From assembly GCA_963828735.1 (NCBI GenBank), contig CAWHFW010000004.1:215863-279862 (forward strand): a stretch of DNA of 64,000 bases. Reading direction: 5' to 3'. The position numbers and the translations under genes are program-made. The notes under the pieces are model-generated. The model was not told the DNA's origin, ran no database searches, and was given only the letters and a program-made list of their open reading frames with translations. Below, one piece after another: positions 5,303 through 31,295 of the stretch. The stretch's first letter is position 1, and every line of letters starts with the position of its first letter. Source of the stretch: an uncultured Gemmatimonadales bacterium. Lineage in GTDB: Bacteria > Gemmatimonadota > Gemmatimonadetes > Gemmatimonadales > GWC2-71-9.

Positions 5303-7500
5303 TGGCCCGCCGGGAGGCGTTTCACGGCCCCACTGGGGAAACGCTGTCCGACCGGATCCGCTACCATGCCATCCGGTGGCTGCCGCTGCTCGCGACGGCC
5401 CTGGTCACGTACGCGCTGTTCCCGCCGCCGGCCGCCGTCCTGTCCCGCGTTCCCGACGTCGGTCAGCGTGCCGAGCGCACCGTCGTGGCACCGTTCCCGT
5501 ATCAGGTGCGCAAGTCCACCGACGAGCTGGCCCGGGAGGGCGAGGCTCGCGCGATGACGGCGCAGCCGGTGTATCGCTTCAGCCCCACCGCGTACGACTC
5601 AGCCATTGCCGCCACGCGGGATTTCTTCGCCGACCTCGACCGTGCCGGCACTCAGAACCCCGAGCTCATGCGTGCCGTGGCCGCGACGCAGGCCCATCTC
5701 GGTCCGGAGGAGACCCGGTTCCTCGCGGATTCGGCCAATCGCCGGGCCATGCGCGAGCTCGTGACGCACTTCCTGGGCGAGTCGCTGTCGCACGGCGTCG
5801 CCGACGCGGGCGTGATTCGCGGCGAGGCGAGCCGGCAGATCACCCTGCGCCGCAACGACGCGGAGCGCGTGGTGGCGCGCGACTCGATCCTCACGTTCGC
5901 CGATCTCATGGAGCAGGCCGAGGTCGCCGGCATCGTCGTCGAGGATCCCGTGGGCCAGCGGACCCTCCGGCGCCTGGTGGGCGCGTTCTACCACCCGACC
6001 ATCGTGCCCGACCCGTTGCTCACGAGCGCGCGCCGCGAGCAGCTGCGGGCGAGCATCGACCCGGTGCGCTTCGGCGTCCGCTCGGGCGAGCGGATCGTGT
6101 CCTCGGGCCAGGCCGTGAGCGAGGAGCAGCGGGCCAAGCTCATCGCGCTGCACCAGGAGCTCGAGCGGCGCGGCTCCCAGGAATTCTGGACTCAGGGTGC
6201 CGTCGGCGGGTTCCTGTACAACGCCCTCGTGCTGAGCGCCTTCTGGCTGCTGTTGGTGTTCTACCGGCCCGAGACGTACGCGGAAGTCCGCGAGATGGCC
6301 TTCTTCGGCGGCCTCCTCACGCTGGTCGTGTTGATCACCGCGGGGACGACGCAGCTGCTGCCGATCCGGCCGGAGATGGTTCCCATCCCGTTCGCCGCGA
6401 TCCTGGTGACCCTCCTCTACAACGGCCGCATCGGGGTATTCGCGGCGCTGACACTCGCGGTGCTTCTGGATGGCCAGTGGGAGCTGCGCGAGACCGGCAT
6501 TCTCTTCTTCGGCCTCATGGGCGGCGTCGCGGGGGCCATCGGCATCCGGGCGGTCCGGCGCCGGCGGCATCTCTACGTCACGGTCGCGGTGGTGGCGGGC
6601 GCGAGCATGCTGGCCTCGCTGACCATCGGCCTCATGCAGGGATGGGGGACGATCACCATCGTGGCGAGCGCGTTCCTGGGTGTGCTCATGGCGCTGGCGA
6701 GCGCCGCGCTCGCGATGCTCGTCACGCCTCTCGCCGAGTCGGCGACCCGCATCACGACGGATCTCACGCTGCTCGAGCTTTCCGACCTGGGCCGGCCGCT
6801 CCTCCGCCGCCTCGCGCTCGAAGCGCCGGGCACGTGGGCGCACAGTCTGGCGATGGCCAACCTCTGCGAGTCCGCCTGCAACATCATCGGAGCGAACGGG
6901 CTGCTCGCGCGCGTCGGCTGCTATTACCATGACATCGGCAAGCTGACGGCGCCCGGGTTCTTCGTCGAGAACCAGGGCGGGGGACCGAATCCGCACGATC
7001 AGCTCCCTCCCGCCGAATCCGCGCGCATCATCCGGCAGCACGTGCTCGACGGCATCGCCCTGGCCGAAACGGCGGGCCTCCCGCCCATCGTACGGTCGTT
7101 CATTCCGGAGCATCACGGGACCACGGAGATCAGCTACTTCCTCGTGCGCGCCCGGCGGGCCTCGCCGAACGGCTTGCCCAACCCATCCGACTACCGCTAT
7201 CCCGGTCCGCGCCCGCAGCGCGCCGAGACGGCGGTCGCCATGCTCGCGGACTCCGCCGAGGCCGCCATCCGCGTGCTGCCCGATCCCACGCCCGACAAGG
7301 TGCGCGAGGCGATCGATCTCCTGGTGCAGCAGAAGCTCGCCTCGGGACAGCTCGAGGACGCGCCGCTCACCCTGCGCGACATCGACCGGGTGAAGCGCGA
7401 ATTCGCCCGCGTGATGTCGGGCACCTACCACAAGCGCATCGGGTATCCCCGTGCCAGCGGCGGCATCACGTCGGAATTCCAGACCGCCGAGCGGCAGTGA
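5302..7500 (+). CDS. 7TM-HD (HDIG) membrane phosphohydrolase, PgpH-like
   Basis: Extracytoplasmic domain, ~7 TM helices, APGTWAHS, YYHDIGK, EHHGT, MLADSAEAA; TGATG coupling to phoH. Confidence 0.9.
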   Translation: MARREAFHGPTGETLSDRIRYHAIRWLPLLATALVTYALFPPPAAVLSRVPDVGQRAERTVVAPFPYQVRKSTDELAREGEARAMTAQPVYRFSPTAYDSAIAATRDFFADLDRAGTQNPELMRAVAATQAHLGPEETRFLADSANRRAMRELVTHFLGESLSHGVADAGVIRGEASRQITLRRNDAERVVARDSILTFADLMEQAEVAGIVVEDPVGQRTLRRLVGAFYHPTIVPDPLLTSARREQLRASIDPVRFGVRSGERIVSSGQAVSEEQRAKLIALHQELERRGSQEFWTQGAVGGFLYNALVLSAFWLLLVFYRPETYAEVREMAFFGGLLTLVVLITAGTTQLLPIRPEMVPIPFAAILVTLLYNGRIGVFAALTLAVLLDGQWELRETGILFFGLMGGVAGAIGIRAVRRRRHLYVTVAVVAGASMLASLTIGLMQGWGTITIVASAFLGVLMALASAALAMLVTPLAESATRITTDLTLLELSDLGRPLLRRLALEAPGTWAHSLAMANLCESACNIIGANGLLARVGCYYHDIGKLTAPGFFVENQGGGPNPHDQLPPAESARIIRQHVLDGIALAETAGLPPIVRSFIPEHHGTTEISYFLVRARRASPNGLPNPSDYRYPGPRPQRAETAVAMLADSAEAAIRVLPDPTPDKVREAIDLLVQQKLASGQLEDAPLTLRDIDRVKREFARVMSGTYHKRIGYPRASGGITSEFQTAERQ

Positions 7501-7507
7501 CGTCGCC

Positions 7508-7909
7508 GTGAGCGGACGTCGCATGCCCCTCCCGGGGACGCTGGTGCGCCGGGTGGTCGAGACCGTGCTCGCGGGAGAGCGTCGCCGCGCCCTGGTCTCG
7601 ATCACCTTTCTCGGCCGCGACGCCATGCGGCGGCTGAATGCCAGCCACACCGGGCACGATCGGCCGACCGACGTCCTCAGCTTCGCCCTGACCGACCCGT
7701 CGGGCGCCACCGTGGGCGACGTCTACGTCTGCGCATGGGTCGCCCGACGTGAGGCGCGGACCCGCCGCATTCCGCTGCGCGAGGAGCTGATTCGCCTCGT
7801 CGTGCACGGCACGCTGCACGCCCTCGGCCGCGACCATCCCGAGGGCGAGCGCCGCACCACCTCGCCCATGTGGCGGCGGCAGGAGCGGTACGTGGACGCG
7901 CTCGCATGA
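7508..7909 (+). CDS. ybeY: rRNA maturation endoribonuclease YbeY
   Basis: PTDVLSF and HGTLHALGRDH metal-binding motif; start uncertain. Confidence 0.9.
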   Translation: MSGRRMPLPGTLVRRVVETVLAGERRRALVSITFLGRDAMRRLNASHTGHDRPTDVLSFALTDPSGATVGDVYVCAWVARREARTRRIPLREELIRLVVHGTLHALGRDHPEGERRTTSPMWRRQERYVDALA

Positions 7910-9102
7910 TGGCCATGCTGCAGCTTTTCATCGCCCCGCTGGTCGCGGCGGGGCTCACGCTCTGGGCGGCATGGCTCGCGCTCGCGGCGGAGTCGGACGC
8001 GGACCTGCCGCGGGCGCTCGGCGGGGAGTTCTCCACCGAGACCGGGGCAGGGACGCTCTCTCGCAATCTGCATGTGGCGCACCTGGCGCTCCTCGTGCTC
8101 GCCGGCGCCGCGGCGGGCGGCGCGGTAGCCTGGTGGGCGCGGCCGCCCGCGGCCGGCCTCGTCCGCCTGACGCTCGCGGTCGGGTTGGTGTGGGTCTTGG
8201 GCGACTTGCTCCCGCGACTCCTCGCGGCCGTGGCGCCCGAGCTCACGGCGCCCGCGAGGCGCGCCGCCGCGGCGACGATGGCGCCGTTCCGGCCGCTCCT
8301 CAGGCTCGCGGCCTGGGCCGACACCCGAGCGCGCATGGCCGCGCCGAGCCAGGCGGCCCATCACGCCGGCGCCGCCGAGCGCGACATGCTTCTCGGCGTC
8401 TTCTCCCTGTCCGACACCACGGTGGCGGAGGTGATGACGCCGCGGATCGACGTCATCGCCGTCGATTCGTCGGCCGATCGCGAGGAAGTGACCGACACGC
8501 TCCGGAGCTCGGAGCACGCGCGCCTCCTCGTCTACGACGGGCACCCGGACGCGGTGGCCGGCGTCATCTACGCGAAGGACATCCTGGCCGCGCGCCCGGA
8601 AAATGAGACGCCGTGGCAGACGCTCATTCGCCCCGCGGCGTTCGTGCCCGAGGGCAAGCCGCTGGACCGGCAGCTCCGCGACTTTCAGCGTGGTCCGAGC
8701 CATCTGGCGGTGGTGGTGGACGAGTTCGGCGGGACCGCCGGGCTGGTCACGCTGGAGGACATTCTCGAGCAGATCGTCGGCGAGATCCAGGACGAGCGCG
8801 ACATCGACGAGGTCGTCCCGATCCAGGTGGTCGCCGAGGACCAGCTCCGCGTCGAGGGCGGCGTGGCGCTGTCCGAGCTCGAGGGCGTCCTCGGTCACAG
8901 CTTCGACCGGGAGGACGTGAGCACGGTCGGGGGGCTGGTGCTCGCAGAGTTCGGTCGGGTGCCGCGCACCGGCGAGGTGATCGACCTCGACGGTTATCGA
9001 CTCATCGTGGAGCAGGTGATCCGGCGCCGGGTGCGACGCGTCGCGGTGTATCGGCCGCCCGTGGAAGCTCCTCTCACCGCGGCCGACCGGGTGCTGCCGT
9101 GA
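7906..9102 (+). CDS. CNNM/CorC-type membrane protein (TM + CBS pair + CorC domain), copy 1
   Basis: EVMTPRID, VVVDEFGGTAGLVTLEDILEQIVGEIQDE, STVGGLV. Confidence 0.88.
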   Translation: MMAMLQLFIAPLVAAGLTLWAAWLALAAESDADLPRALGGEFSTETGAGTLSRNLHVAHLALLVLAGAAAGGAVAWWARPPAAGLVRLTLAVGLVWVLGDLLPRLLAAVAPELTAPARRAAAATMAPFRPLLRLAAWADTRARMAAPSQAAHHAGAAERDMLLGVFSLSDTTVAEVMTPRIDVIAVDSSADREEVTDTLRSSEHARLLVYDGHPDAVAGVIYAKDILAARPENETPWQTLIRPAAFVPEGKPLDRQLRDFQRGPSHLAVVVDEFGGTAGLVTLEDILEQIVGEIQDERDIDEVVPIQVVAEDQLRVEGGVALSELEGVLGHSFDREDVSTVGGLVLAEFGRVPRTGEVIDLDGYRLIVEQVIRRRVRRVAVYRPPVEAPLTAADRVLP

Positions 9103-10289
9103 CCTGGGTGGCCATCGTGGTCGGCGTGATGGTGGCCGCGTTCGGCGCGACCGCCGGGGCGGCGCTGATCACGGTGAGCCGTGCGGAGCTCACCCGCGCC
9201 GTGAGTCGGCGTCTCCGCGGCGCGGCCCCATCGCTCGCGTGGCTCTCCAGGGTCGACAACTATCTCACCGCGGCGTCCGCCACGACGTCCCTCGGCGTCC
9301 TGATCGTCGGCGCGACGCTGCCCGCGCTCGCGGGCTCGGGCGCGCCTCGCGTGATCGTCACCCTCGCCATCCTCGGCGTGCCGCTGGTGCTCGTCGCGGC
9401 CTACCTCGTGCCCCGACGGTTGACCCAGCCCCGCGCGGAAACGGTGGCTGACCGCGTCATCCCGGTGCTCCGCCTCTGGTCCCGCGTCATCGGCCTGCTG
9501 CTGCCGGCCCGGACCGCCACGCGGCCAACTGATCTGCGATCGATCTGGCGCGAGGGCGCGGCGGTCGGTCTTCGGGCCGACGACGAGCTGTTCCTCGTGG
9601 GCGGCGTCATGGCGTTCAGCGTGCGGCCGGTGCGCGAGGTGATGACGCCGCGCACGGAAATCGTCGCCATCGACGAGCACGCGGCGCTCGATGACATCCG
9701 CATGGTCTTCGCCCAGAGCGGCTACAGCCGGATCCCGGTCTATCGCGAGACACTCGACGACATCATCGGGATGCTGCACGCGTTCGACCTGTTTCGCCTT
9801 CAGCCCGGTGATCCGCTGCCGGTGCGTCCGCTGGCGGTGACGCCGGCCAGCCGAGACTGCGGCGACCTGCTGCTCGACATGCAGCGCGAGCGCCGCCACC
9901 TGGCCGTGGTGCTGGACGAGTTCGGCGGCACGCTCGGGATCGCCACGCTGGAGGACCTGCTCGAGGAGCTGGTCGGCGAGATCTTCGACGAGCACGACGA
10001 CGAAGTCCGCGCCTCGCCGACCAGCGGGCCCGCGCTCTTCGAGACCGACGGCAACGTCTCGCCCGAGGCCATCGAGGAGCAGTTCGGCGTGTCGCTCCCC
10101 GAGGGCCGTTCCAGCACGGTGGCGGGACTGCTGGCCGAGTGGGCCGGGCGCATCCCGAACGCGGGCGAGCGCTTCACCGTGCGCGGCCTCGAGTTCGACG
10201 TGCTGCAGGCCTCCCCCACCCGCATCGAGCGAATGCTGATCCGCTCCGGCGCGGCCTCTCCCGTGACGCTCCTGCCGAGCGGTTCGTGA
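9099..10289 (+). CDS. CNNM/CorC-type membrane protein, copy 2
   Basis: GTGA overlap with previous gene; EVMTPRTEI, SGYSRIPVY, VLDEFGGTLGIATLEDLLEELVGEIFDE. Confidence 0.9.
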   Translation: MTWVAIVVGVMVAAFGATAGAALITVSRAELTRAVSRRLRGAAPSLAWLSRVDNYLTAASATTSLGVLIVGATLPALAGSGAPRVIVTLAILGVPLVLVAAYLVPRRLTQPRAETVADRVIPVLRLWSRVIGLLLPARTATRPTDLRSIWREGAAVGLRADDELFLVGGVMAFSVRPVREVMTPRTEIVAIDEHAALDDIRMVFAQSGYSRIPVYRETLDDIIGMLHAFDLFRLQPGDPLPVRPLAVTPASRDCGDLLLDMQRERRHLAVVLDEFGGTLGIATLEDLLEELVGEIFDEHDDEVRASPTSGPALFETDGNVSPEAIEEQFGVSLPEGRSSTVAGLLAEWAGRIPNAGERFTVRGLEFDVLQASPTRIERMLIRSGAASPVTLLPSGS

Positions 10290-11623
10290 CGCACTCCGAC
10301 GACAAGGTCGAACGCATGGTCGACCTGGTACGGACGGGCGAGATCACCGTTTTCGTCCGCCGCGCCCACGACTTCGAGCCGGCCGATCTCGCCGACGTGC
10401 TTTCGGCGCTGGGCGAGCAGGACCGGCTGGCAGTGGTCCAGGCGCTGCCGCCGGAGCTCTCGAGCCAGGCCCTGATCGAGATGCCCCAGGCCGCCCACGC
10501 CGAGGACACGCTCGCAGCGCTCGCGCCGGAGAAGGCGGCGGAGATCGTCGAGGAGCTCGAGGACGACGACGCGGCCGACATCCTGGGCGAGCTCGCACCG
10601 GCCGAGCAGGAGCGCATCCTCTCCACGCTCGAACACCGGGCCGACGTCAAGCGACTGCTGCGCTACGACGAGAAGACCGCCGGCGGCCGGATGACCACGC
10701 ACGTGGTGACCGTGCGCGACACGGCCACCGTCGGCGAGGCGCTCGACGAGATCCGACGGCAGGCGGAGACCGTCAGCGAGTTCTACCAGGTGTTCGTGGT
10801 GGACGCCGAGCGGCGGCTCGTGGGCGTCCTGCCCTTCAAGGATCTGGTGGTGAGCCGCCCGGATCGGCGCGTGCGGGACTTCATGGCGCCGGCCGACGTC
10901 TCCGTGCGGACGGACGCGGACCAGGAGGAGGTGGCCCGCCTGCTCGCGAGGTACAACCTCCCGAGCCTCGCCGTCGTGGACGAGGTCGGGCATCTGCTCG
11001 GCCGCATCACGTTCGACGACGTGATCGACGTCGTGGAGGACGAGTCGACCGAGGACCTGCTGCGCTTCGGCGGCGTCTCCGCGGGCGAGGCGCTCGCGGC
11101 GGGGTGGCGGGAGGCGGTGCGGAGCCGCCTGCCGTGGCTCTACCTGAACCTGCTCACGGCGTTTCTCGCCGGCGGGGTCGTCTACGTCTTCCAGGGCACC
11201 GTGCAGCGCACGGTGGCGCTCGCGGTGTGGATGCCGATCATCGCGGGGATGGGCGGCAACGCCGGCACCCAGGCGCTCGCGGTGACCGTGCGGCGGCTCG
11301 CGCTGGGGCTCATTCCGACCCACCTGTTCGTGCGGGTGGTCGGCAAGGAGGTCCTGGTCGGCATGGTGAACGGTCTCGCGATCGGCGTTGTCGTGGGTCT
11401 CGTCGCCACGATCATGGGCGGCCAGAGCCGCCTCGGCCTCGTCGTCTTCCTCGCGATGTCGGGCAACCTGCTGGTGGCCGGCTTCGCCGGGGGCTTCATC
11501 CCGGTCGTGCTCGAGCGCTACCGGATCGACCCCGCCATCGCCTCGTCCATCTTCGTCACGACCTTCACCGACGTGTGCGGCTTCCTTCTGCTCCTCGGGC
11601 TCGCGGGATGGCTCCTGCTCTGA
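10286..11623 (+). CDS. mgtE: Magnesium transporter MgtE
   Basis: MgtE_N, CBS pair (TAGGRMT), RLPWL, GMGGNAGTQ, DPAIASSIFVTTFTD. Confidence 0.95.
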   Translation: MTHSDDKVERMVDLVRTGEITVFVRRAHDFEPADLADVLSALGEQDRLAVVQALPPELSSQALIEMPQAAHAEDTLAALAPEKAAEIVEELEDDDAADILGELAPAEQERILSTLEHRADVKRLLRYDEKTAGGRMTTHVVTVRDTATVGEALDEIRRQAETVSEFYQVFVVDAERRLVGVLPFKDLVVSRPDRRVRDFMAPADVSVRTDADQEEVARLLARYNLPSLAVVDEVGHLLGRITFDDVIDVVEDESTEDLLRFGGVSAGEALAAGWREAVRSRLPWLYLNLLTAFLAGGVVYVFQGTVQRTVALAVWMPIIAGMGGNAGTQALAVTVRRLALGLIPTHLFVRVVGKEVLVGMVNGLAIGVVVGLVATIMGGQSRLGLVVFLAMSGNLLVAGFAGGFIPVVLERYRIDPAIASSIFVTTFTDVCGFLLLLGLAGWLLL

Positions 11624-11630
11624 CCGCCTA

Positions 11631-13268
11631 GTGCGGGCTCTGGTCGTCTTCGGCCGGCTGTTTCCGTTCGTGCTGGCCTTTCTGCTGGACCGCCGGCGGT
11701 TTCTCGTCTTCGGCCGGCCGCGCCGGCGCTCGGCGGATCATCACCGGCGGCGCGCGGATCGGCTTACCCGCACCGTGGCCGACCTCGGGCCCACCTTCAT
11801 CAAGCTGGCCCAGGTCTTCGCCACGCGGGCGGACATCCTGCCCGAGCCGTACCTCTCCACCATCAGCACGCTCACCGACCAGGTCCCGCCGCTCCCGTCG
11901 GGCGTCGCGGAGCGAGTGGTGGAGGAGGAGCTGGGGCGCGACGTCGCGCACCTGTTCGGGCGGTTCGACGCCGAGCCCCTCGCCGCGGCCTCGCTGGGCC
12001 AGGTCCACCGGGCCACGTACCAGGGTCGAGAGGTCGTGGTCAAGGTGTTACGGCCGGGCGTCGAGGCCATCGTCGCCGAAGACCTGGACGTGTCCTTCCG
12101 CATTCTCTTCGTCCTCAACGTCCTGTTTCCCAACCACCACACGCGCGCGATCACCGCGATCGTGAGCGAGTTCGCCAAGCGGGTGCGGGACGAGCTCGAT
12201 TTCCGCGAGGAAGCCAGGAACGCCACCACCCTCCGGCGCAACTTCCAGGCGGAGCCCAGGGTCGTCGTGCCCGAGGTCGTGACGGAGCTGGTAACGCGGC
12301 GCGTGCTCGTGCTCGAGTACGTGGAGGGGACGCGCATCGATCGCCTGCGGGACCGGCTCGCGTCGGGCGAGCTCGACCTGCAGCGGCTGATCGAGACGGT
12401 GGTCGACGCGTACATCAAGATGATGCTCGAGGACGGCGCCTTTCACGCCGATCCGCACGCCGGGAACCTGCTGGTGGATCCGCAGGGGCGCCTCGTCCTG
12501 CTCGACTTCGGCATGGTGCTCGAGGTCGACCGGGAGACCCGGCGGCGGCTGCTCGAAACCGTGCTCGCGGCGGGCCGGCAGGACGTCGAAGGGGTGATCA
12601 ACGGCTTCTACGAGCTGGGCATCCTCGATCCGGACGTCGACCGCGGCACCGTGCGCGACGCGGCCCGGAGTCTCATGGCGGTCTCCCTTCGAGACGACGT
12701 CTCGCCGCGACAGATCCAGCGCCTCGTCGAGCAGGTGCTTCAGACGTTCTACGAGTGGCCCCTGATGCTGCCGTCCAACCTGGTCTACTTCGGCCGCGCG
12801 GGCGTGCTGGTGGAGGGCCTGGGACTTCGGTACGACCCGAACTTCAACGTGCTCGCCCTGGCGCGGCCCGTGCTCGACCGGGCCGCGACGCGCCTCATCC
12901 GCGGCGCGCTCGAGCAGGACCCGCGGAGCCGGATCACCGATTGGACGCAGGAAGCGCTCACGACGGTCCGGACGCTGCGAGATCTCGTGCGGCGGGTCGA
13001 GCGCGACGAGCTCCGGGTGCGCTCACACCCCAGGGACGCGCTCGAGCTTCAGCGGTTTCTCGCCCAGCAGATGCGCCGCGTGCTGCTCGCGCTGCTCGCG
13101 TTCACCATCGCGATCATCGCGAGCGTCGTGTTCGCGGCGACCCGCAGACTCGAGGTGCTCGTGGTGGGTCTGCTCATCGCATTCGGGATGTTTCTGGTGA
13201 TCTTCCTGCTGCCGACACACCTATTTCAGAACCCGCTCCGTTTCCGAAAGAATTGGCCGCCGCGGTGA
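11631..13268 (+). CDS. ABC1/UbiB (AarF) family atypical kinase with C-terminal TM helices
   Basis: LGPTFIKLAQ, PLAAASLGQVH, VVVKV, ELDF, FHADPHAGN, LLDFGM. Confidence 0.92.
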   Translation: MRALVVFGRLFPFVLAFLLDRRRFLVFGRPRRRSADHHRRRADRLTRTVADLGPTFIKLAQVFATRADILPEPYLSTISTLTDQVPPLPSGVAERVVEEELGRDVAHLFGRFDAEPLAAASLGQVHRATYQGREVVVKVLRPGVEAIVAEDLDVSFRILFVLNVLFPNHHTRAITAIVSEFAKRVRDELDFREEARNATTLRRNFQAEPRVVVPEVVTELVTRRVLVLEYVEGTRIDRLRDRLASGELDLQRLIETVVDAYIKMMLEDGAFHADPHAGNLLVDPQGRLVLLDFGMVLEVDRETRRRLLETVLAAGRQDVEGVINGFYELGILDPDVDRGTVRDAARSLMAVSLRDDVSPRQIQRLVEQVLQTFYEWPLMLPSNLVYFGRAGVLVEGLGLRYDPNFNVLALARPVLDRAATRLIRGALEQDPRSRITDWTQEALTTVRTLRDLVRRVERDELRVRSHPRDALELQRFLAQQMRRVLLALLAFTIAIIASVVFAATRRLEVLVVGLLIAFGMFLVIFLLPTHLFQNPLRFRKNWPPR

Positions 13269-13656
13269 GCGCCTCGTGGTACCGGTCGCGCCATTGGCGA
13301 AGCGAGTCGGTCGAGAGCTCGTCCAGCGTCCGCGAAACGGCGGCGACGGCGCCCATCGCCAACGACAGGCGCTCGCGCTCGAGCGTCGTAGCCGCGCCGG
13401 CGCCCTGCTCTGCCAGGGAGAACAGCACGATCTGGAGGTGGTTGTTGATGCGGTCGCGGAGCAGCGCCTGGATTTCCGCGATCAGTCGCTGGCGGATCGC
13501 GGTCGCCCGGCGGCGCAGGACCCAGAGCAGGGTGCCCTGCAGCACGCACGCGGCGAGCGCGGCGCCCGCCAGCTCCTGGGCGTCGGTGCCGAGCTCGAGC
13601 CCGAGCGGAACCAGCAGGGCCACCGACAGCGTCACCGCGACGAGATAGAGCTCCAC
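13174..13656 (-). CDS. Hypothetical 2-TM membrane protein with a degenerate HisKA/DHp-like helix
   Basis: Two hydrophobic segments followed by LLRDRINNHLQIVL; overlaps the 3' end of the ABC1 gene by ~95 nt. Confidence 0.55.
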   Translation of the reverse strand: MELYLVAVTLSVALLVPLGLELGTDAQELAGAALAACVLQGTLLWVLRRRATAIRQRLIAEIQALLRDRINNHLQIVLFSLAEQGAGAATTLERERLSLAMGAVAAVSRTLDELSTDSLRQWRDRYHEALTAAANSFGNGAGSEIGVSAAGRSPETSRMR

Positions 13657-13715
13657 GTTGGCGGCGACGTGCGTCTCGAACCGGCGCCACCAGCGGCGCC
13701 GATGGGCAGGAAGAT

Positions 13716-13735
13716 GCCCCCCCTTGCGGGGGGGC
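13716..13735 (-). terminator. GC hairpin downstream of the peptidoglycan-binding protein gene
   Basis: GCCCCCCC-ttgc-GGGGGGGC; short ATCTT tail on the minus strand. Confidence 0.55.
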
Positions 13736-13763
13736 GGGATGAGCGGGAACTGCGGAGGCCTGG

Positions 13764-14129
13764 TCAGGCGGACTTAAGCTTGGCGAGGACGTTCTCGTCC
13801 AGCTGTCCGGTGACGGGCATCTTGTTCTTCTTCTGGTATTCCTTGAGCGCCTTGTGGGTGTCGGCGTTGAAGGTCCCGTCCACCTTTCCCTTGTAGAGCC
13901 CTTCCTTGGCCAGCCCCTCCTGGGCTTCCTTGACCTCTGCCTTGGTCCACGAGGCCTGCTTCGTGGTGGACGTGGCCGTGGCGCTGGTCGACGCCTTCTT
14001 GGCCGTGTCCGACGCGTGACTCGTGGCGGGCTTGGAAGCCGGCTGTTGGTTCGCGCTGGACTGGGCAGCGAGGACGCTGGTCGAGAGGGTCAGGGCTGCC
14101 ATGGCGGCGACGAGAGCGAGCGTGCGCAT
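13764..14129 (-). CDS. Secreted peptidoglycan-binding (PG_binding_1-like) protein
   Basis: Signal peptide MRTLALVAAMAALTLSTSVLA, S/T/A/K-rich linker, VKEAQEGLAKEGLYKGKVDG..ALKEYQKKNKMPVTGQLD; RBS GAGGAGG. Confidence 0.88.
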   Translation of the reverse strand: MRTLALVAAMAALTLSTSVLAAQSSANQQPASKPATSHASDTAKKASTSATATSTTKQASWTKAEVKEAQEGLAKEGLYKGKVDGTFNADTHKALKEYQKKNKMPVTGQLDENVLAKLKSA

Positions 14130-14195
14130 CGTGTTTCCTCCTCGGGAGTGCGGCATGGCCTCCGGAGTGGAGACCACGATCGACCCACCGGAAAG

Positions 14196-14210
14196 GCAAT
14201 CCATGTGCCA
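14196..14210 (-). promoter_or_regulatory. sigma54 -24/-12 promoter for the PG-binding protein gene
   Basis: Minus strand TGGCAC-ATGGA-TTGC, exact consensus; predicted +1 near 14184. Confidence 0.85.
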
Positions 14211-14268
14211 TGCGAAGGGGAGCCAAATGAGGCCTCGTGAGGGGAGACGGAGCGGGTCGGGCGAGGAT

Positions 14269-14308
14269 GGCGCGCCACTCTGTCCGTTGACGGACAGACT
14301 GGCGCGCC
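14269..14308. promoter_or_regulatory. 19-bp inverted repeat containing two candidate bEBP upstream activator boxes
   Basis: GCGCCActcTGTCCG (14272-14286) and CGGACAgacTGGCGC (14291-14305), 59-98 bp upstream of the -24 element. Confidence 0.65.
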
Positions 14309-14314
14309 GCATGG

Positions 14315-15736
14315 CTACTCGAAACGGCGGGGGAGGTTCCAGCGCAGGATCATGCGACTCAGCGTCCGGCGGCTGATGCCCAGGACACGCGAGGTTTCGT
14401 CGCGATTGCCGCGCATCGCGCCGAGGACGCGAAGGACGTGGTCCCGATCGATGTCCTCGAGGGACCGCAGCGGGCTCGAGGCCGCGGGGTCGGCAGCGGC
14501 CACCGCGGCCGGCACGCCGAACGAGCCGCGTGGAGCGCGCACATCGGGCGGCAGGTGCTCCGGGCCGATCACGTCCTGCTCGGCGAGCAGCATGGCGCGC
14601 TCCAGCACGTTCTGCAGCTCCCGGATGTTGCCCGGCCAGTCGTAAGCGAGCAGTCGCCGCTGCGCTTCGGGATCGACCGCCACGGGGCCGCGGCCGTGGC
14701 GCGCGGCGAGCTCGCGCAGGAAGTGGTCGATGAGGAGCGGAATGTCCTGCGGACGCGCCCTGAGCGGCGGCAGCGTGAGCGTGACGACATTCAGCCGATA
14801 GTACAGATCGTCACGGAACCGACCCTGGCGGACGAGTTCTGGCAGATCCCGGTGCGTCGCGGCCAGCACGCGTACGTCCACGCGGACCGGGGTTTCCGAG
14901 CCCACCGGCACGATCTCGTGCTCCTGCAGGGCCCGGAGCAGTCGCGCCTGCAGGCCGGGCGAGATGTCGCCGATCTCGTCGAGGAACAGCGTCCCGCGGT
15001 CGGCCTCGCGGAAGAGGCCGGGACGTGCGGCGGCAGCGCCCGTGAAGGCCCCGCGCACGTGGCCGAACAGCTCGCTCTCGAGCAACCCTTCGGCGAGCGC
15101 GGAGCAGTTGACCGCCACGAACCGGCGGTCGGCGCGCTCGGAGAAGTGGTGTATGGTGCGGGCCACGAGCTCCTTGCCCGTGCCGGTCTCGCCGAGCACC
15201 AGCACGGTAGCCTGCGACGGCGCGACGCGCGCCAGCGTCTTCATCACCTCGATGATGGCGGGGCTGTGTCCCACCAGCGCCGGCCCCGCCGAGCGACCGC
15301 CGGAGTCTCCCTCGCTGGACGATCCGCGGTCACGCCGCACGCCGGCGAGCCGGCGCCGACCGAGCGAGCGGGCCAGCGTCTCGCGGAGCGCCGCGAGGTC
15401 GTACGGCTTGCTGATGAAGTCGTACGCGCCGGCGCGGATGGCCTCGCCTGCCGCGCCGGCGTCGCCGAAGGCGGTGAGCACGAGGATCAGCGCCGCGGGG
15501 TCGCGCTCCCGGAGCGTACGCAGCAGGTCGAGCCCGCTCTTGCCGGGCATGCGCAGGTCCGTCAGTACGGCGTCGAACGGGCCGTTGTCGTTCACCTTGG
15601 TGAGCGCCTCGTCCGCCGAGAGCGCCGGCACGACGTCGTACGCCTCGCGCTCGAGCACCTCGGCGAGCAGGCGGCACGCCTCCTCGTCGTCGTCCACGAG
15701 CAGGAGTCTGGCGCGGGTGAGGGTCGGCGCGGTCAT
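14315..15736 (-). CDS. NtrC-family sigma54-dependent response regulator (REC-AAA+-HTH)
   Basis: LLLVDDD, TDLRMP, GETGTGKE, ESELFGH, GAFTGA, LFLDEIG, WPGNIRELQN, Fis-type HTH. Confidence 0.96.
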   Translation of the reverse strand: MTAPTLTRARLLLVDDDEEACRLLAEVLEREAYDVVPALSADEALTKVNDNGPFDAVLTDLRMPGKSGLDLLRTLRERDPAALILVLTAFGDAGAAGEAIRAGAYDFISKPYDLAALRETLARSLGRRRLAGVRRDRGSSSEGDSGGRSAGPALVGHSPAIIEVMKTLARVAPSQATVLVLGETGTGKELVARTIHHFSERADRRFVAVNCSALAEGLLESELFGHVRGAFTGAAAARPGLFREADRGTLFLDEIGDISPGLQARLLRALQEHEIVPVGSETPVRVDVRVLAATHRDLPELVRQGRFRDDLYYRLNVVTLTLPPLRARPQDIPLLIDHFLRELAARHGRGPVAVDPEAQRRLLAYDWPGNIRELQNVLERAMLLAEQDVIGPEHLPPDVRAPRGSFGVPAAVAAADPAASSPLRSLEDIDRDHVLRVLGAMRGNRDETSRVLGISRRTLSRMILRWNLPRRFE

Positions 15737-17190
15737 GCGATCTCCTCGATGGGCAGGGTCAGGCGCCAGCGGACGCCGCGGGCGCTAGGGACGTGGACGA
15801 GGTCACCGCCCAGCATGCGGGCGAGGCGCCGGCTGACCGCGAGGCCAAGGCCGGAGCCGAGGGGACCCTTGGTGGTGGAGAACGGTCGAAAGAGATTGGA
15901 CTCGGCCTCATCGTCGAGGCCGGGGCCATCGTCCTGGACGTCGATGTAGGCGTGATTGTCGGCCAGCCCGGTGGCGATCGAGACCGTCCCGCCGTCCGGC
16001 AGCGCCTCGACCGAGTTCTTGAGCAGGTTGAGCAGGATCTGCTCGACCATGGCCGGATCGCACGTGGCGAGGACCGGCCGCCCGCCGTCGAGCGCCAGCT
16101 CCGCGCGGACGCCGGCGTCGGTGAACGACGGCTCGAGGAATCGCGCCATCCGCACCGCGATCTCGTTCAGATCCTGTCGCCGCACCAGGGGCCGCGGCCA
16201 CGGGCCGCGGTTGAGGCCCGCGCGCACGATGCCCGCCACCCGATCGACCTGCGCGAGCAGGAGCCGCACGCGCTCGACGCCCTTGGCGTCCTGCTGGCCC
16301 TCGAAATCGTCGCGCAGCAGCTGGAGGTGGCCGCTCACCGTGTTGAGCGGGGTGCCGATCTCGTGTGCGAACATCGCGGCCGTCTCGTGCATCAGTGCGA
16401 GGCGGTCCAGGCCGCGGGCCCGCTCCTCGAGCGTCAGGAGCATGGCGCGAGCGGCGCTCTCGCGCTCGCGGGCCGAGAGCGCCTCGCGCATCTGGTTGTA
16501 CCGGCGGGTCAGCTCGCGAAACTCGCGTGGGCCGATCTCGGGGGCGTCCGGTGCGCCGGTGGCGCCGCCGTGCGCGCCCGCCATCGCGGTGCCGAGCGCG
16601 GCCAGTGGACGACCGACCCATCGCGCCGTCAGCACCGCCACGAAGAGCGCGACCAGGAGAGCCGAGATCAGGGCGAGCAGGTAGCCGCGGCGCCGCTCCA
16701 GCCGGGCCCAGTCCAGCAACCGGCGCGTCGAGACGCGCACGTCGAGCACCCCGAACATGCGCGGCATGCCGAGCGGCACGGCGACCTCCCAGCCGGGCGC
16801 CTCCCCCTGGTGAAGCATGACCTCGGTGGCCCGGTGCGCGAGCGCGGCGTACGCCACACGGCTGGCGGAGGTCGTATCGCTCGCGCCGCTCGCGGCGACG
16901 GGCGAGAGGTGCCTGGCGTGGACGAGGTAGACGATCGCCTGGGAGTCGTTGGTGCGGTGGCGGGCCCACCCTTCGAGGCCCTGTCCGAGGCTGGTCGAGT
17001 CGCCGTGCGGAGCGCTGCGGACGAGCAGCGACGCCAGGGTATTCGCCAGCGCGACCGTCTCCAGCCGGAAATCCTCGAGGCGCGTGCGCCCCGACCACCA
17101 GAGGGCGATCTCGGTCGCTCCGGTCACGAGCAGGATGGCCATGACGGCCGTGAGCACGGCGAGCCGCCGTGGCAGGCCCATGGGCATCAT
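15733..17190 (-). CDS. Membrane sensor histidine kinase (periplasmic domain, HAMP, HisKA, HATPase)
   Basis: Two TM helices, FAHEIGTPL H-box, NLLKNSVEA, DDGPGL, GSGLGL; ATGA overlap with the regulator; start at 17190, 17187 or 17181. Confidence 0.92.
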   Translation of the reverse strand: MMPMGLPRRLAVLTAVMAILLVTGATEIALWWSGRTRLEDFRLETVALANTLASLLVRSAPHGDSTSLGQGLEGWARHRTNDSQAIVYLVHARHLSPVAASGASDTTSASRVAYAALAHRATEVMLHQGEAPGWEVAVPLGMPRMFGVLDVRVSTRRLLDWARLERRRGYLLALISALLVALFVAVLTARWVGRPLAALGTAMAGAHGGATGAPDAPEIGPREFRELTRRYNQMREALSARERESAARAMLLTLEERARGLDRLALMHETAAMFAHEIGTPLNTVSGHLQLLRDDFEGQQDAKGVERVRLLLAQVDRVAGIVRAGLNRGPWPRPLVRRQDLNEIAVRMARFLEPSFTDAGVRAELALDGGRPVLATCDPAMVEQILLNLLKNSVEALPDGGTVSIATGLADNHAYIDVQDDGPGLDDEAESNLFRPFSTTKGPLGSGLGLAVSRRLARMLGGDLVHVPSARGVRWRLTLPIEEIA

Positions 17191-17529
17191 GCGCGGCGCC
17201 CCGGGGCGACGAGCCGACGGTCGGGGGCCCGATCCATTACCGCGGGTCGCCGGATGCGCCGGCGGCGTCCGGAGAACTGGTGTCCGGAGAACTATGGAAA
17301 GCGGGACCAGTGGCTGGCATGCGTGCGGACCTGGCTTCCATGACGGAGGCGACGCCCCCGCTGCGTCCGGCGGACGAGGCGTCCCGCGCTGGGGCGGGTC
17401 GTCGTCCCGGCCCGGAACGGAAATGTAGCGGCCTGGGAGGCGACCTTGCCGCCAGCGCTTCCTGCGTCGAGCGGCGTCTTGTACGCTCAGCACCGGCCAG
17501 CCCCCAGGGAGGCGAACGCGTGCTGGAGG

Positions 17530-17544
17530 GCAAGAACACGGCCA
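17530..17544 (-). promoter_or_regulatory. Second sigma54 -24/-12 promoter, directed toward the HK-RR operon
   Basis: Minus strand TGGCCG-TGTTC-TTGC; predicted +1 near 17518. Confidence 0.7.
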
Positions 17545-17597
17545 ATGGTGAAAGTGCTTGTGGGACGGCAGATTTCGGTTCCTTTGCTCGCGGGCAT

Positions 17598-17642
17598 GGG
17601 ACGATTTGGCCCGCATCCAGGCCACTCGGGCCAAGATGTCCG
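17598..17642. promoter_or_regulatory. Second pair of candidate bEBP boxes (same motif as 14272-14305)
   Basis: GGGACGattTGGCCC (17598-17612) and GGGCCAagaTGTCCG (17628-17642), 54-98 bp upstream of the -24 element. Confidence 0.62.
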
Positions 17643-17669: not shown

Positions 17670-18260
17670 GTGAACCTGGAAAGCCTGATCCTTCACTACG
17701 GCCTCGTCGCGGTCTTCCTTGGTGCCGCGCTGGAAGGCGATTTCACCCTCATCCTCGCCGGCGTCGTAGCCCACCTCGGCTACTTCCCGTTCCCCCTGGC
17801 CGTCGCCGCCGGCGCCGTCGGGAGCATACTCGGTGATCTCGCCTGGTACGGGCTCGGACGGACCCACGGACGATGGTTCCGATCGGGTCGGCTGTACCGG
17901 CGGGTCGGGCCCCGGATCGAGTCCCTGGCGCGCCGCTTCGGGAGCGCGCAGCTCCTCGCGGCGCGATTCGTCTACGGGACCAAGGCCGCCAGCATGGTAT
18001 TCTGGGGCCTTCACGACATGCCGCTCGCCAAGTTCCTGCTGGTGGACGGGATCGGGGCGCTGATCGGGTCCTTCGTGTTCTCCGGCCTGGGCTACCTCGT
18101 GAGCGGAAGCGCGACCCTGCTGCTGGGGAAGGTGCGGCGGGTTCAGTTCTGGCTGCTCGGGGCGCTGGTCATCGGCATCGTGCTGGTCGTCGTGATCCAT
18201 TTTACGGCCAAGAAGGAGCTGCAGCTCGAGAACGGGGACGGCGGCCTCGACACCGAATAG
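17670..18260 (+). CDS. DedA/SNARE-associated family membrane protein
   Basis: YGLVAVFLGAALEGD, GDLAWYGLGR, LLAARFVYG. Confidence 0.88.
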   Translation: MNLESLILHYGLVAVFLGAALEGDFTLILAGVVAHLGYFPFPLAVAAGAVGSILGDLAWYGLGRTHGRWFRSGRLYRRVGPRIESLARRFGSAQLLAARFVYGTKAASMVFWGLHDMPLAKFLLVDGIGALIGSFVFSGLGYLVSGSATLLLGKVRRVQFWLLGALVIGIVLVVVIHFTAKKELQLENGDGGLDTE

Positions 18261-18332: not shown

Positions 18333-19384
18333 ATGGATCCCGACCTCCTGCTCGCGGGCCTGCAGGCCGGCAATACTGCGGCCTTGGCCCGCGCGATCTC
18401 GGTGGTCGAGAACCGGCGTCCCGGGTTCGAGCGCCTGCTGGCCGACGTCCACCGGTTCATCGGGCGGGCCCGCCGCATCGGAATCACCGGCCCGCCCGGC
18501 GCGGGCAAGTCCACACTCGTCGAACGCATGGTAGCCGCCTACCGGCACGTTGGATTGCGGGTGGCGGTCGTGGCCGTCGATCCTACCAGCCCCTTCACCG
18601 GCGGCGCGCTGCTTGGCGACCGCATCCGCATGGAATCCGTGGCGCTCGACCAGGGGGTCTACATCCGGTCGATGGGAAGCCGCGGGTCCCTCGGCGGTCT
18701 GGCCACCACCACGCGCGAGGTGTGTGACCTGCTTGATGCCGCGGGTTTCGAGCGCATCCTGATCGAAACCGTCGGCGTCGGACAGAGCGAGCTCGACGTC
18801 GCGCGCATGGCCGATACCACGGTCCTCGTCCTCGTGCCCGAGTCGGGCGACGGCATCCAGACCCTCAAGTCCGGGGTGATGGAGATCGCCGACCTGTTCG
18901 TCGTGAACAAGGCGGACCGCCCCGGAGCGGAGAAGCTGCGCCAGGAAATCGAAGTCACGCTCGGCATCCGCCGCGGCAACGCGTTCCGGAACGTGCCGGC
19001 GCATCACGGTCGAGCAGTCGGACGGCCGGGCAAGCGCGCCGGGGATGCGGGCGCCGCGGACCAGGTGACCGCGCCGCCGTCCTGGGATCAACCGGTGGTC
19101 CTCAGCGTGGCGGCCAAGGGTGAGGGCGTGGGGGAGCTGATCGGCGCCCTCGACCGGCACTCCGCGTGGCTCGCCGAGAGCGGCACGCTCGAGGGGCGCC
19201 GCCGCCGGCGTCTGCTCGATCGGACCCGCGAGGTGGTGGACCGGGCCACGCGGCGCTGGCTGTGGGAAGAGACTCGCGCCGACGAGCGCATCAACGAACG
19301 GCTGGACGAGATCGTGGCCGGGCGCGTCAGTCCCTACGAGGTGGCGGCGGAAGTGCTGGACGGGCTCAAGCAGGGAGAGCGGAT

Positions 19385-19388
<4 letters not shown>
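18333..19388 (+). CDS. meaB: MeaB/ArgK GTPase, chaperone of B12-dependent mutases
   Basis: [48 protein letters not shown]. Confidence 0.95.
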
Positions 19389-21097
<1,709 letters not shown>

Positions 21098-30633: not shown

Positions 30634-30743
30634 TGGCCGGTGGATTGCCTCGCGCTACCTTGTCGCCAACCCGGCGACGGGTACGCGAGCGGGCATCGAG
30701 TCGGATGCGCCGCTCCGATCAATCCGATTCAAGGAGGAGCGGT

Positions 30744-31295
30744 ATGAGGGTACCGAAGGGCGTCGTTCCGTTGGCCCTCGCTCTTGGGCTGGGTGCAGCA
30801 CCGCTGCACGCCCAGGGTCCCGAGTTCTCGGTCGGTGGCGGGCTCGACCTGCCGCTGGGCAACTTCGACGATGCAGCGAACACGGGATATCACGGGTTGG
30901 CCGCCGTCTCGTTCGTCCCGACCGGCTCGCCGGTCGGCTTTCAGGTGGACGGCGACTACGGTCGATTCGGGGACGACACACCCGCCGACGTCAATTTTCA
31001 ACTCATCTACGGCACGGCCAACGTCGTCTACAAGTTCAAGACATCCGAGACGAGTACCTTCCGTCCCTACCTGATCGGCGGCGGCGGAGTGTACAGCTTC
31101 AAGCCGACGGGTAACGACGTGCTGCCGGGGACGAGCTCGGAAACGAAATTCGGCATCAACGCCGGCGCCGGGTTCGACATCAAGGCGGGAAGCGCGGCAT
31201 TGTTCCTCGAAGGGCGATTCCACGACGTCTTCATCAGCGGGTCGGACCTGCAGTATTTGCCACTGACCGTCGGCATTCGCTTCGGCGGTCACTGA
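30744..31295 (+). CDS. Outer-membrane 8-stranded beta-barrel protein (OmpA-TM/OmpW-like)
   Basis: RBS AAGGAGG, signal peptide, RPYLIGGGGVY, FGINAGAGFDI, terminal LTVGIRF strand. Confidence 0.85.
   Translation: MRVPKGVVPLALALGLGAAPLHAQGPEFSVGGGLDLPLGNFDDAANTGYHGLAAVSFVPTGSPVGFQVDGDYGRFGDDTPADVNFQLIYGTANVVYKFKTSETSTFRPYLIGGGGVYSFKPTGNDVLPGTSSETKFGINAGAGFDIKAGSAALFLEGRFHDVFISGSDLQYLPLTVGIRFGGH

Follow-up and report, generated by a model that had tools for sequence, protein, structure and literature searches.

A sigma54 two-component locus with paired symmetric boxes at three promoters and a predicted envelope regulon in an uncultured Gemmatimonadales bacterium

A sensor kinase gene and a gene for an NtrC-family bacterial enhancer-binding protein (bEBP) that lie between two sigma54-type (-24/-12) promoter elements, each preceded by a pair of 15-bp boxes, raise the question of which genes the boxes mark and what their products do together. 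Regulation by paired sites, sigma54 and self-activation is a textbook mechanism class, which limits the surprise in finding it. We analysed such a locus in an uncultured Gemmatimonadales bacterium, within a stretch of 64,000 nucleotides (the window; GenBank assembly GCA_963828735.1, contig CAWHFW010000004.1, positions 215,863 to 279,862). The results argue that this is probably a sigma54 two-component locus with paired symmetric boxes at three promoters, which together define a predicted envelope regulon. The regulatory wiring is very likely as described below, and a role in envelope charge is reasonably probable.

The kinase (15733..17190, minus strand; 484 residues; start at 17190 or 17187) is predicted to have two transmembrane (TM) segments, a HisKA domain with the H-box histidine and a HATPase_c domain, and it has H, N, G1, F and G2 boxes. 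The start of the regulator gene (14315..15736, minus; 473 residues) overlaps the kinase stop; its product has a receiver domain, a Sigma54_activat domain with GAFTGA at residue 229, and an HTH_8, Fis-type helix-turn-helix domain. The genome also encodes rpoN, on which a preliminary description of this DNA had made the circuit depend (TIGR02395, 426.7 bits against a cut-off of 277.35). Receiver, GAFTGA AAA+ and Fis-type domains, rpoN and conserved boxed promoters together are those of a sigma54 NtrC-family two-component system, and the identities given in that description to the two proteins between the promoters were confirmed.

The upstream promoter, that of the kinase-regulator operon, has a TGGCCG-N5-TTGC element (17530..17544, minus; predicted +1 at 17518) with boxes at 17628..17642 (distal; centre at -91 from the -24 element; 12.7 bits) and 17598..17612 (proximal; -61; 13.6 bits). 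The downstream promoter, which precedes a small secreted protein gene, has a TGGCAC-N5-TTGC element (14196..14210, minus; predicted +1 at 14184), a distal box at 14291..14305 (-88; 15.0 bits) and a proximal box at 14272..14286 (-69; 13.8 bits), the two boxes forming an inverted repeat. Both elements and all four boxes were found where they had been described, as were centre-to-centre spacings of 19 and 30 bp; the distance of 95-98 bp given with them exists, but is measured between the T of TGG and the outer edge of the distal box. A wider range (13174..17642) had been proposed for the circuit, of which the promoters and boxes stand, whereas the inclusion of an open reading frame (ORF) at 13174-13656 as a circuit member is not borne out.

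The asymmetric consensus first proposed for the boxes has 42 matches genome-wide; comparison of relatives gives a symmetric one, G[A/C/T]CA-N3-TG[T/G/A]C with G-rich flanks. A symmetrised matrix (75 distinct sites, 14.3 bits) was trained on relatives, with the own genome left out; its core columns are fixed by construction, because sites were chosen with a loose core pattern. When the own genome was scanned with this matrix, a box pair was present at 3 of 465 sigma54-like sites, two in the window and one on another contig, C5 (28.8, 26.3 and 24.6 bits), and at none of the remaining sites. None of 200 column-shuffled matrices yielded three promoter-linked pairs, and no box pair with at least 8 bits per box occurred in 3000 random 450-nt windows of the genome. 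A loose IUPAC pattern, tried as a presence test over 151 genomes, was dropped as too noisy (39 and 29 of 151 genomes).

The circuit is thus not self-contained, as it had been taken to be, because the third boxed promoter (-24/-12 at C5:692533, box pair at -103/-72 in C5:692423-692468, start predicted near C5:692559) heads a separate operon on C5. This operon begins at 692581 and comprises genes for a GT4 glycosyltransferase, a Polysacc_deac_1 deacetylase and a putative flippase, the last of which passes the LPG_synthase_TM cut-off. In many relatives the same trio of genes is co-operonic with the kinase, the upstream promoter lying 1-3 kb before the kinase and heading the GT4, polysaccharide deacetylase and LPG_synthase_TM genes; in the own genome the trio has been split off onto C5. 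The place of the trio is here taken by a predicted 5' leader of approximately 330 nt (17191..17518, minus), in which tblastn found no credible remnant of the three genes.

Both promoters and their box pairs are conserved in orthologous loci. Among 33 Gemmatimonadales training loci, with one distant match in L070 left out of the counts, 29 of the 30 with sufficient sequence have the downstream promoter and its pair, and 25 of 30 have the upstream promoter and its pair; these counts are partly circular because the same loci trained the matrix. Twenty further family loci, which were not used for training and represent 20 of the 22 other kinase-bearing genomes, gave the downstream promoter and pair in 14, and L095 has a pair at a greater distance; one of the twenty, L093, apparently shares its genome with training locus L072. 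The upstream promoter and pair are present in all six further loci that have the enzyme trio, and seven of the 14 trio-less loci have a pair with a degenerate -24/-12 element pointing at the kinase. The preliminary description had the regulator activating its own operon; the corresponding layout proves widespread (13 of 20 distant loci), whereas self-activation itself we infer. Downstream pairs have centre spacings of 17-20 bp (29 of 30) and upstream pairs of 29-33 bp (22 of 23), which fits the earlier idea that the two arrangements differ by one helical turn.

The boxes accompany the regulator across genomes. The kinase was detected in 23 of 151 family genomes, and its N-terminal part in 19 of 86 own-family genomes compared with 0 of 114 from two other families of the order. 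A GT4 orthologue is present in 33 of the 151 genomes, and for the 30 whose GT4 loci were examined, promoter and boxes precede the operon in 9 of 10 kinase-bearing genomes (own included) and in none of 20 kinase-less ones. Boxes remain with the trio where it is unlinked from the kinase-regulator pair, both in the own genome and in G046, in which the trio stays at the ancestral place, with promoter and boxes kept, and the pair is absent from that place. Pair-bearing genomes have additional boxed promoters, i.e. before an unlinked peptidoglycan-binding paralogue (G066), a PAP2_3 and hydrolase operon (G046) and outer-membrane barrels (G076, G132).

Transcript evidence came from 8 of 19 metatranscriptome runs, as contigs only, with per-run shares of the window of 0.05-0.16. 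The small-protein gene is covered by contigs in all eight runs; uncovered parts of the kinase gene are uninformative. Upstream ends of the small-protein contigs fall at 14172, 14172, 14170 and 14169 (four studies), clustering 12-15 nt inside the predicted start at 14184, and at 14159, 14140 and 14098; contigs in the kinase leader end at 17518 and 17500. These ends are a weak hint of transcription starts, since contigs cannot show starts and the RNA runs alone were used.

Several observations weigh against the regulon as drawn. One small-protein contig continues to 14260 and one kinase-leader contig to 17600, in each case past the predicted start. Of the trio-less further loci, six lack an upstream pair, and in one the pair accompanies a divergent promoter. 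G066 has the kinase-regulator pair but no boxes at its trio, and strong negative controls, with the whole trio and GT4 first after a gap, amount to only 6 of the 20 kinase-less genomes (3 genera); the remaining 14 have a hydrolase gene ahead of GT4, and their operons may begin outside the 1.5 kb that was inspected. The genomes compared are kin, hence the counts are not independent, and the C5 and upstream promoters probably share one ancestral promoter, so the C5 promoter has no independent origin. Look-alike or weaker pairs at sigma54 sites in the kinase-less genomes G138, G020, G129, G127 and G065 show that, across the bacterial family, motifs of this kind also occur apart from the kinase.

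Those look-alike pairs would be expected if the boxes were read by another activator, with the kinase-regulator pair a passenger between them; the genome encodes approximately 14 GAFTG/DA-type bEBPs, and related half-sites are common among bEBPs in the sections of PMC4641369 consulted and in the GlrR site given in PMC4987338. We nevertheless regard a passenger role as highly improbable. The box pairs flank the kinase and regulator genes down to 52% kinase identity (range 52-93%) while the neighbouring genes change, they are missing from the trio loci of kinase-less genomes, and they occur at no other sigma54-like site of the own genome. The recognition helix of the regulator, SRRTL[S/T]RM, is near-invariant among orthologues and unlike those of the 13 other bEBPs of the genome; this distinctive helix, together with the co-occurrence across genomes, makes the adjacent regulator the likely reader of the boxes on sequence grounds. 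The downstream pair might also be the stem of an RNA terminator rather than two protein sites, being a near-perfect inverted repeat just past the regulator stop codon (-36.8 kcal/mol in the window), a reading that the missing U tract and the disrupted pairing of orthologues weaken, and that we judge the least probable of those weighed here. No terminator was called there, and only 8-11 of 15 positions pair in 10 of the 25 distinct pairs, whereas the G, CA, TG and C positions are constant (being those on which the pairs were selected); the spacing in L048 is 30, and the upstream pair has the same motif, usually arranged as direct repeats. The downstream pair may have a dual role, as protein site and hairpin.

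The protein encoded downstream of the regulator (13764..14129, minus; 121 residues) has a signal-peptide-like N-terminus, a basic linker rich in Ala, Lys, Thr and Ser, and a PG_binding_1 domain (PF01471); its mature isoelectric point (pI) is 9.6. Each of the 13 distant targets that were translated begins like a signal peptide and contains a basic stretch of low complexity (pI 9.5-11.7), and they divide into three with PG_binding_1, five with the helix-hairpin-helix domain HHH_3 and five with no folded domain, the last being 20-31% Lys. In the window the predicted target is a secreted peptidoglycan-binding protein, as had been proposed, but only three of 13 distant targets share its domain. What is conserved at the downstream promoter is a gene for a secreted protein that is small and basic, in which the peptidoglycan-binding domain is replaceable. 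A crude scan found one ORF of this type in the own genome, that of the window. A GC-rich hairpin with a GCAA loop and a short T tract (13718..13733, minus), conserved in close relatives, is likely the 3' end of the small-protein transcript; two RNA contigs stop near it (13757, 13746) and one crosses it. At locus L072 (8233-10907 and 1445-1915), two tandem peptidoglycan-binding proteins each have a sigma54-like element and box pair; a DegP-type protease follows them, and upstream there is a Gln-rich secreted protein with no Pfam match.

In its layout the locus is reminiscent of several described systems. In Clostridioides difficile, hexSDF adjoins, and depends on, hexRK, HexS being annotated as a monogalactosyldiacylglycerol synthase and HexD as a polysaccharide deacetylase (PMC10128005, in part). 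As in the loci of relatives, glycosyltransferase, deacetylase and flippase genes there stand immediately upstream of the controlling two-component pair, the kinase of which likewise has two TM segments and an outside domain of approximately 120 residues (same source). This layout is present in the relatives and split in the own genome. The likeness is one of layout, the present locus having a GT4 enzyme and a sigma54 bEBP, whereas HexR is OmpR-type. A GT4 enzyme, deacetylase and flippase make glucosaminyl-PG in Pseudomonas aeruginosa (gpgSDF), a diderm, and the C5 operon shares with gpgSDF the gene order and a UPF0104-type flippase; it differs in its GT4, which is far under the GpgS cut-off, and in its deacetylase family, and the part of the source available names no regulator for gpgSDF (PMC12713373).

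The enterobacterial ZraP-ZraSR system, as presented in part of PMC4987338, resembles the locus in its membrane kinase and sigma54 regulator, in its two sigma54 promoters, in its targets (the own operon and a small periplasmic protein) and in its envelope-stress role. It differs in that the promoters here are tandem, with separate box pairs, rather than divergent, and that there is a third, lipid-type operon (PMC4987338); furthermore, the small protein is not ZraP. The regulator scores under the equivalog cut-offs for AtoC (442 of 714), ZraR (406 of 760), NtrC (400 of 559) and GlrR (341 of 763), and the kinase under those for AtoS (130 of 646) and ZraS (81 of 479). By these model cut-offs the locus is not classed as an orthologue of ZraPSR, AtoSC, NtrBC or GlrKR; it is laid out like hexSDF-hexRK and ZraPSR and is probably a member of neither. 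Escherichia coli RstB-RstA with asr-samT offers a further parallel, its main target being a small disordered periplasmic protein followed by a small membrane protein, although asr is transcribed with sigma70 and the downstream membrane protein has 27 residues compared with 160 here (PMC13425233, PMC10746267, both in part). The domain-less, Lys-rich distant targets resemble Asr in composition, but the Asr model NF033636 reached 15.7 bits, against a cut-off of 50, in one of six proteins and gave nothing in the other five.

We propose that a periplasmic cue would activate the kinase through its extracytoplasmic domain, that the kinase would phosphorylate the regulator, and that the regulator, assembling on the box pairs, would open sigma54 holoenzyme at three promoters. 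The outputs would be the kinase-regulator operon, giving more regulator in a positive feedback, the small basic periplasmic protein, and the C5 enzymes. More tentatively, the C5 enzymes may place an N-acetyl-sugar on a lipid, deacetylate and flip it, such that an amino-sugar-bearing membrane lipid is exported, and the trigger read by the PAS-like domain may be envelope stress, caused by low pH, cationic compounds or damage to the wall. Overall, the positive charge of the envelope would rise.

The trigger and the lipid product are where other explanations bear most on this proposal. A model of kinase residues 1-255 (predicted local distance difference test score, pLDDT, 83.7) has one extracytoplasmic PAS-like (PDC/Cache-type) domain, which matches WalK (Z 12.8, root-mean-square deviation 2.2, 130 aligned), KinD, CitA, DctB and chemoreceptors; since the matches to the CitA, DctB, KinD and chemoreceptor Cache domains about equal that to WalK (Z 11.6-13.7), the modelled fold, which is common to metabolite sensors, names no signal. 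A prediction of the sensor domain in complex with the peptidoglycan-binding domain scored 0.00, with controls not folded. The regulon could thus be as drawn with the kinase sensing a small metabolite or anion, the physiological point lying in the divergent SulP, ChrA and DedA genes, which begin just past the upstream boxes in many close relatives. That is unlikely in our view: no sigma54 element points toward these genes in close loci, SulP has moved to C5 in the own genome and has no boxes there, the distant loci L081, L084 and L094 keep divergent ChrA/DedA genes without boxes, and every box-bearing target found is an envelope protein or a predicted lipid enzyme. Alternatively, the regulation may be right and the C5 trio make a neutral or mannosylated lipid or modify another surface glycan. 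The GT4 enzyme reaches 67.4 bits with the GpgS model NF053787 (cut-off 480), is under every NCBIfam cut-off listed, and has the mannosyltransferase PimA as its best solved relative (E 3e-36); the C5 deacetylase is NodB-type, whereas GpgD is COG3233 (PMC12713373, in part). We consider a product of this kind quite unlikely, given that a deacetylase adjoins GT4 in 20 of 30 GT4 loci, implying an N-acetylated sugar, that HexD is likewise a deacetylase by annotation (PMC10128005, in part), and that the third gene passes its family cut-off.

A more specific version of our proposal is that in Gemmatimonadales one sigma54 switch joins two stress modules otherwise described apart: an amino-glycolipid operon of the hexSDF/gpgSDF type and an Asr-like basic disordered periplasmic protein, domain-less in some lineages and anchored in others by an acquired peptidoglycan-binding or helix-hairpin-helix domain. 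The response, to acid or cationic stress, would include positive feedback and be damped by a two-TM protein acting as a His-less kinase decoy. This version is speculative and, taken whole, rather unlikely. The decoy would be the conserved two-TM membrane protein of 160 residues encoded after the hairpin (13174..13656, minus), which has no family assignment, has an uncertain start codon and is a candidate regulon member only. An Atlas HisKA cluster matched it at 0.96, behind unnamed clusters, and 4 of 21 members gave HisKA_2 at E 0.05; there was no profile match to the locus kinase and no Foldseek match at E<=0.001. In this region (13174-13766, minus) no start codon of the ORF is conserved: many orthologues have Phe or Leu in place of its first GTG, and conservation of a protein-like kind extends upstream of it, through the hairpin. 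The distance from the small-protein stop to the ORF is 2 mod 3 in 18 of 25 rows, and in the window, which has this register, the frame is open from a CTG overlapping that stop; the register may reflect coupling, an internal start or chance.

The analysis predicts which regulator acts through which sites on which targets, in a lineage where the literature searched describes no such regulon, supplements, a possible site of regulon predictions, not being covered; the parts available of PMC6767563 and PMC3162934 contain nothing specific to this system. In Desulfovibrio, bEBP regulons are normally small, comprising one to four operons (PMC4641369, in part). If the C5 operon makes an amino-glycolipid, the HexSDF/GpgSDF route to membrane charge extends to a new phylum and a different regulator class. 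An operon that has been split with promoter and boxes on both halves is also a natural experiment in regulon evolution.

Divergent from the upstream promoter, a DedA/VTT-family gene (17670..18260, plus) starts 28 bp from the distal box, and its control by the boxes is only possible; in relatives, SulP and/or ChrA precede DedA. A divergent sigma70 promoter for DedA was considered and rejected: AAATCTG is partly conserved (0.46-0.71 per column), and a consensus scan found none. The neighbourhood is conserved on both sides, with CBS/CorC, MgtE and ABC1 kinase genes at 7870-13268 (plus) and MeaB and a methylmalonyl-CoA-mutase-like gene at 18333-21097 (plus).

Around the GT4 genes, the gene for a secreted DUF4142/DUF305 protein is oriented divergently from the C5 promoter (G000:C5; L097:2561-3727, minus), with no sigma54 element toward it. 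In locus L095 (G055:C20; about 6300-8000, oriented) GT4 and deacetylase genes lie downstream of the small protein, not upstream of the kinase, and the GT4 frame is broken in the G055 assembly. Six kinase-less loci (L110, L117, L118, L120, L121, L122) share a conserved non-coding stretch approximately 100-300 nt upstream of the GT4 start, which ends in a hairpin and T run and is possibly an undescribed RNA; it has no Rfam match in L110 or L118. Rfam likewise gave zero matches at the locus, at the C5 operon and upstream of GT4 in G100, G138 and G066.

Other sigma54-like sites were noted in passing. One in the window (30634-31295, plus) precedes an outer-membrane beta-barrel homologue and was rejected as a target here, there being no box in the own genome, though G076 and G132 have a pair; a barrel paralogue at G000:C3:144246 has a sigma54-like element and no boxes. 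The kinase-less loci L132-L134, L197 and L198 (G138, G085, G010, G020; also G093) have another conserved pair of sites, spaced by 25 bp, together with a sigma54 element before a short ORF (approximately 55 codons), probably the target of another bEBP. At G000:C2:750091 (minus) a sigma54-like element closely resembling the downstream promoter, with no box pair, lies before a 68-residue ORF, and the ORF preceding this element looks to us like an Rrf2-type regulator. Finally, a sigma54-like element at G000:C5:1126651 (minus) stands between two bEBP genes, before a gene whose product has a type IV pilin-like N-terminus.

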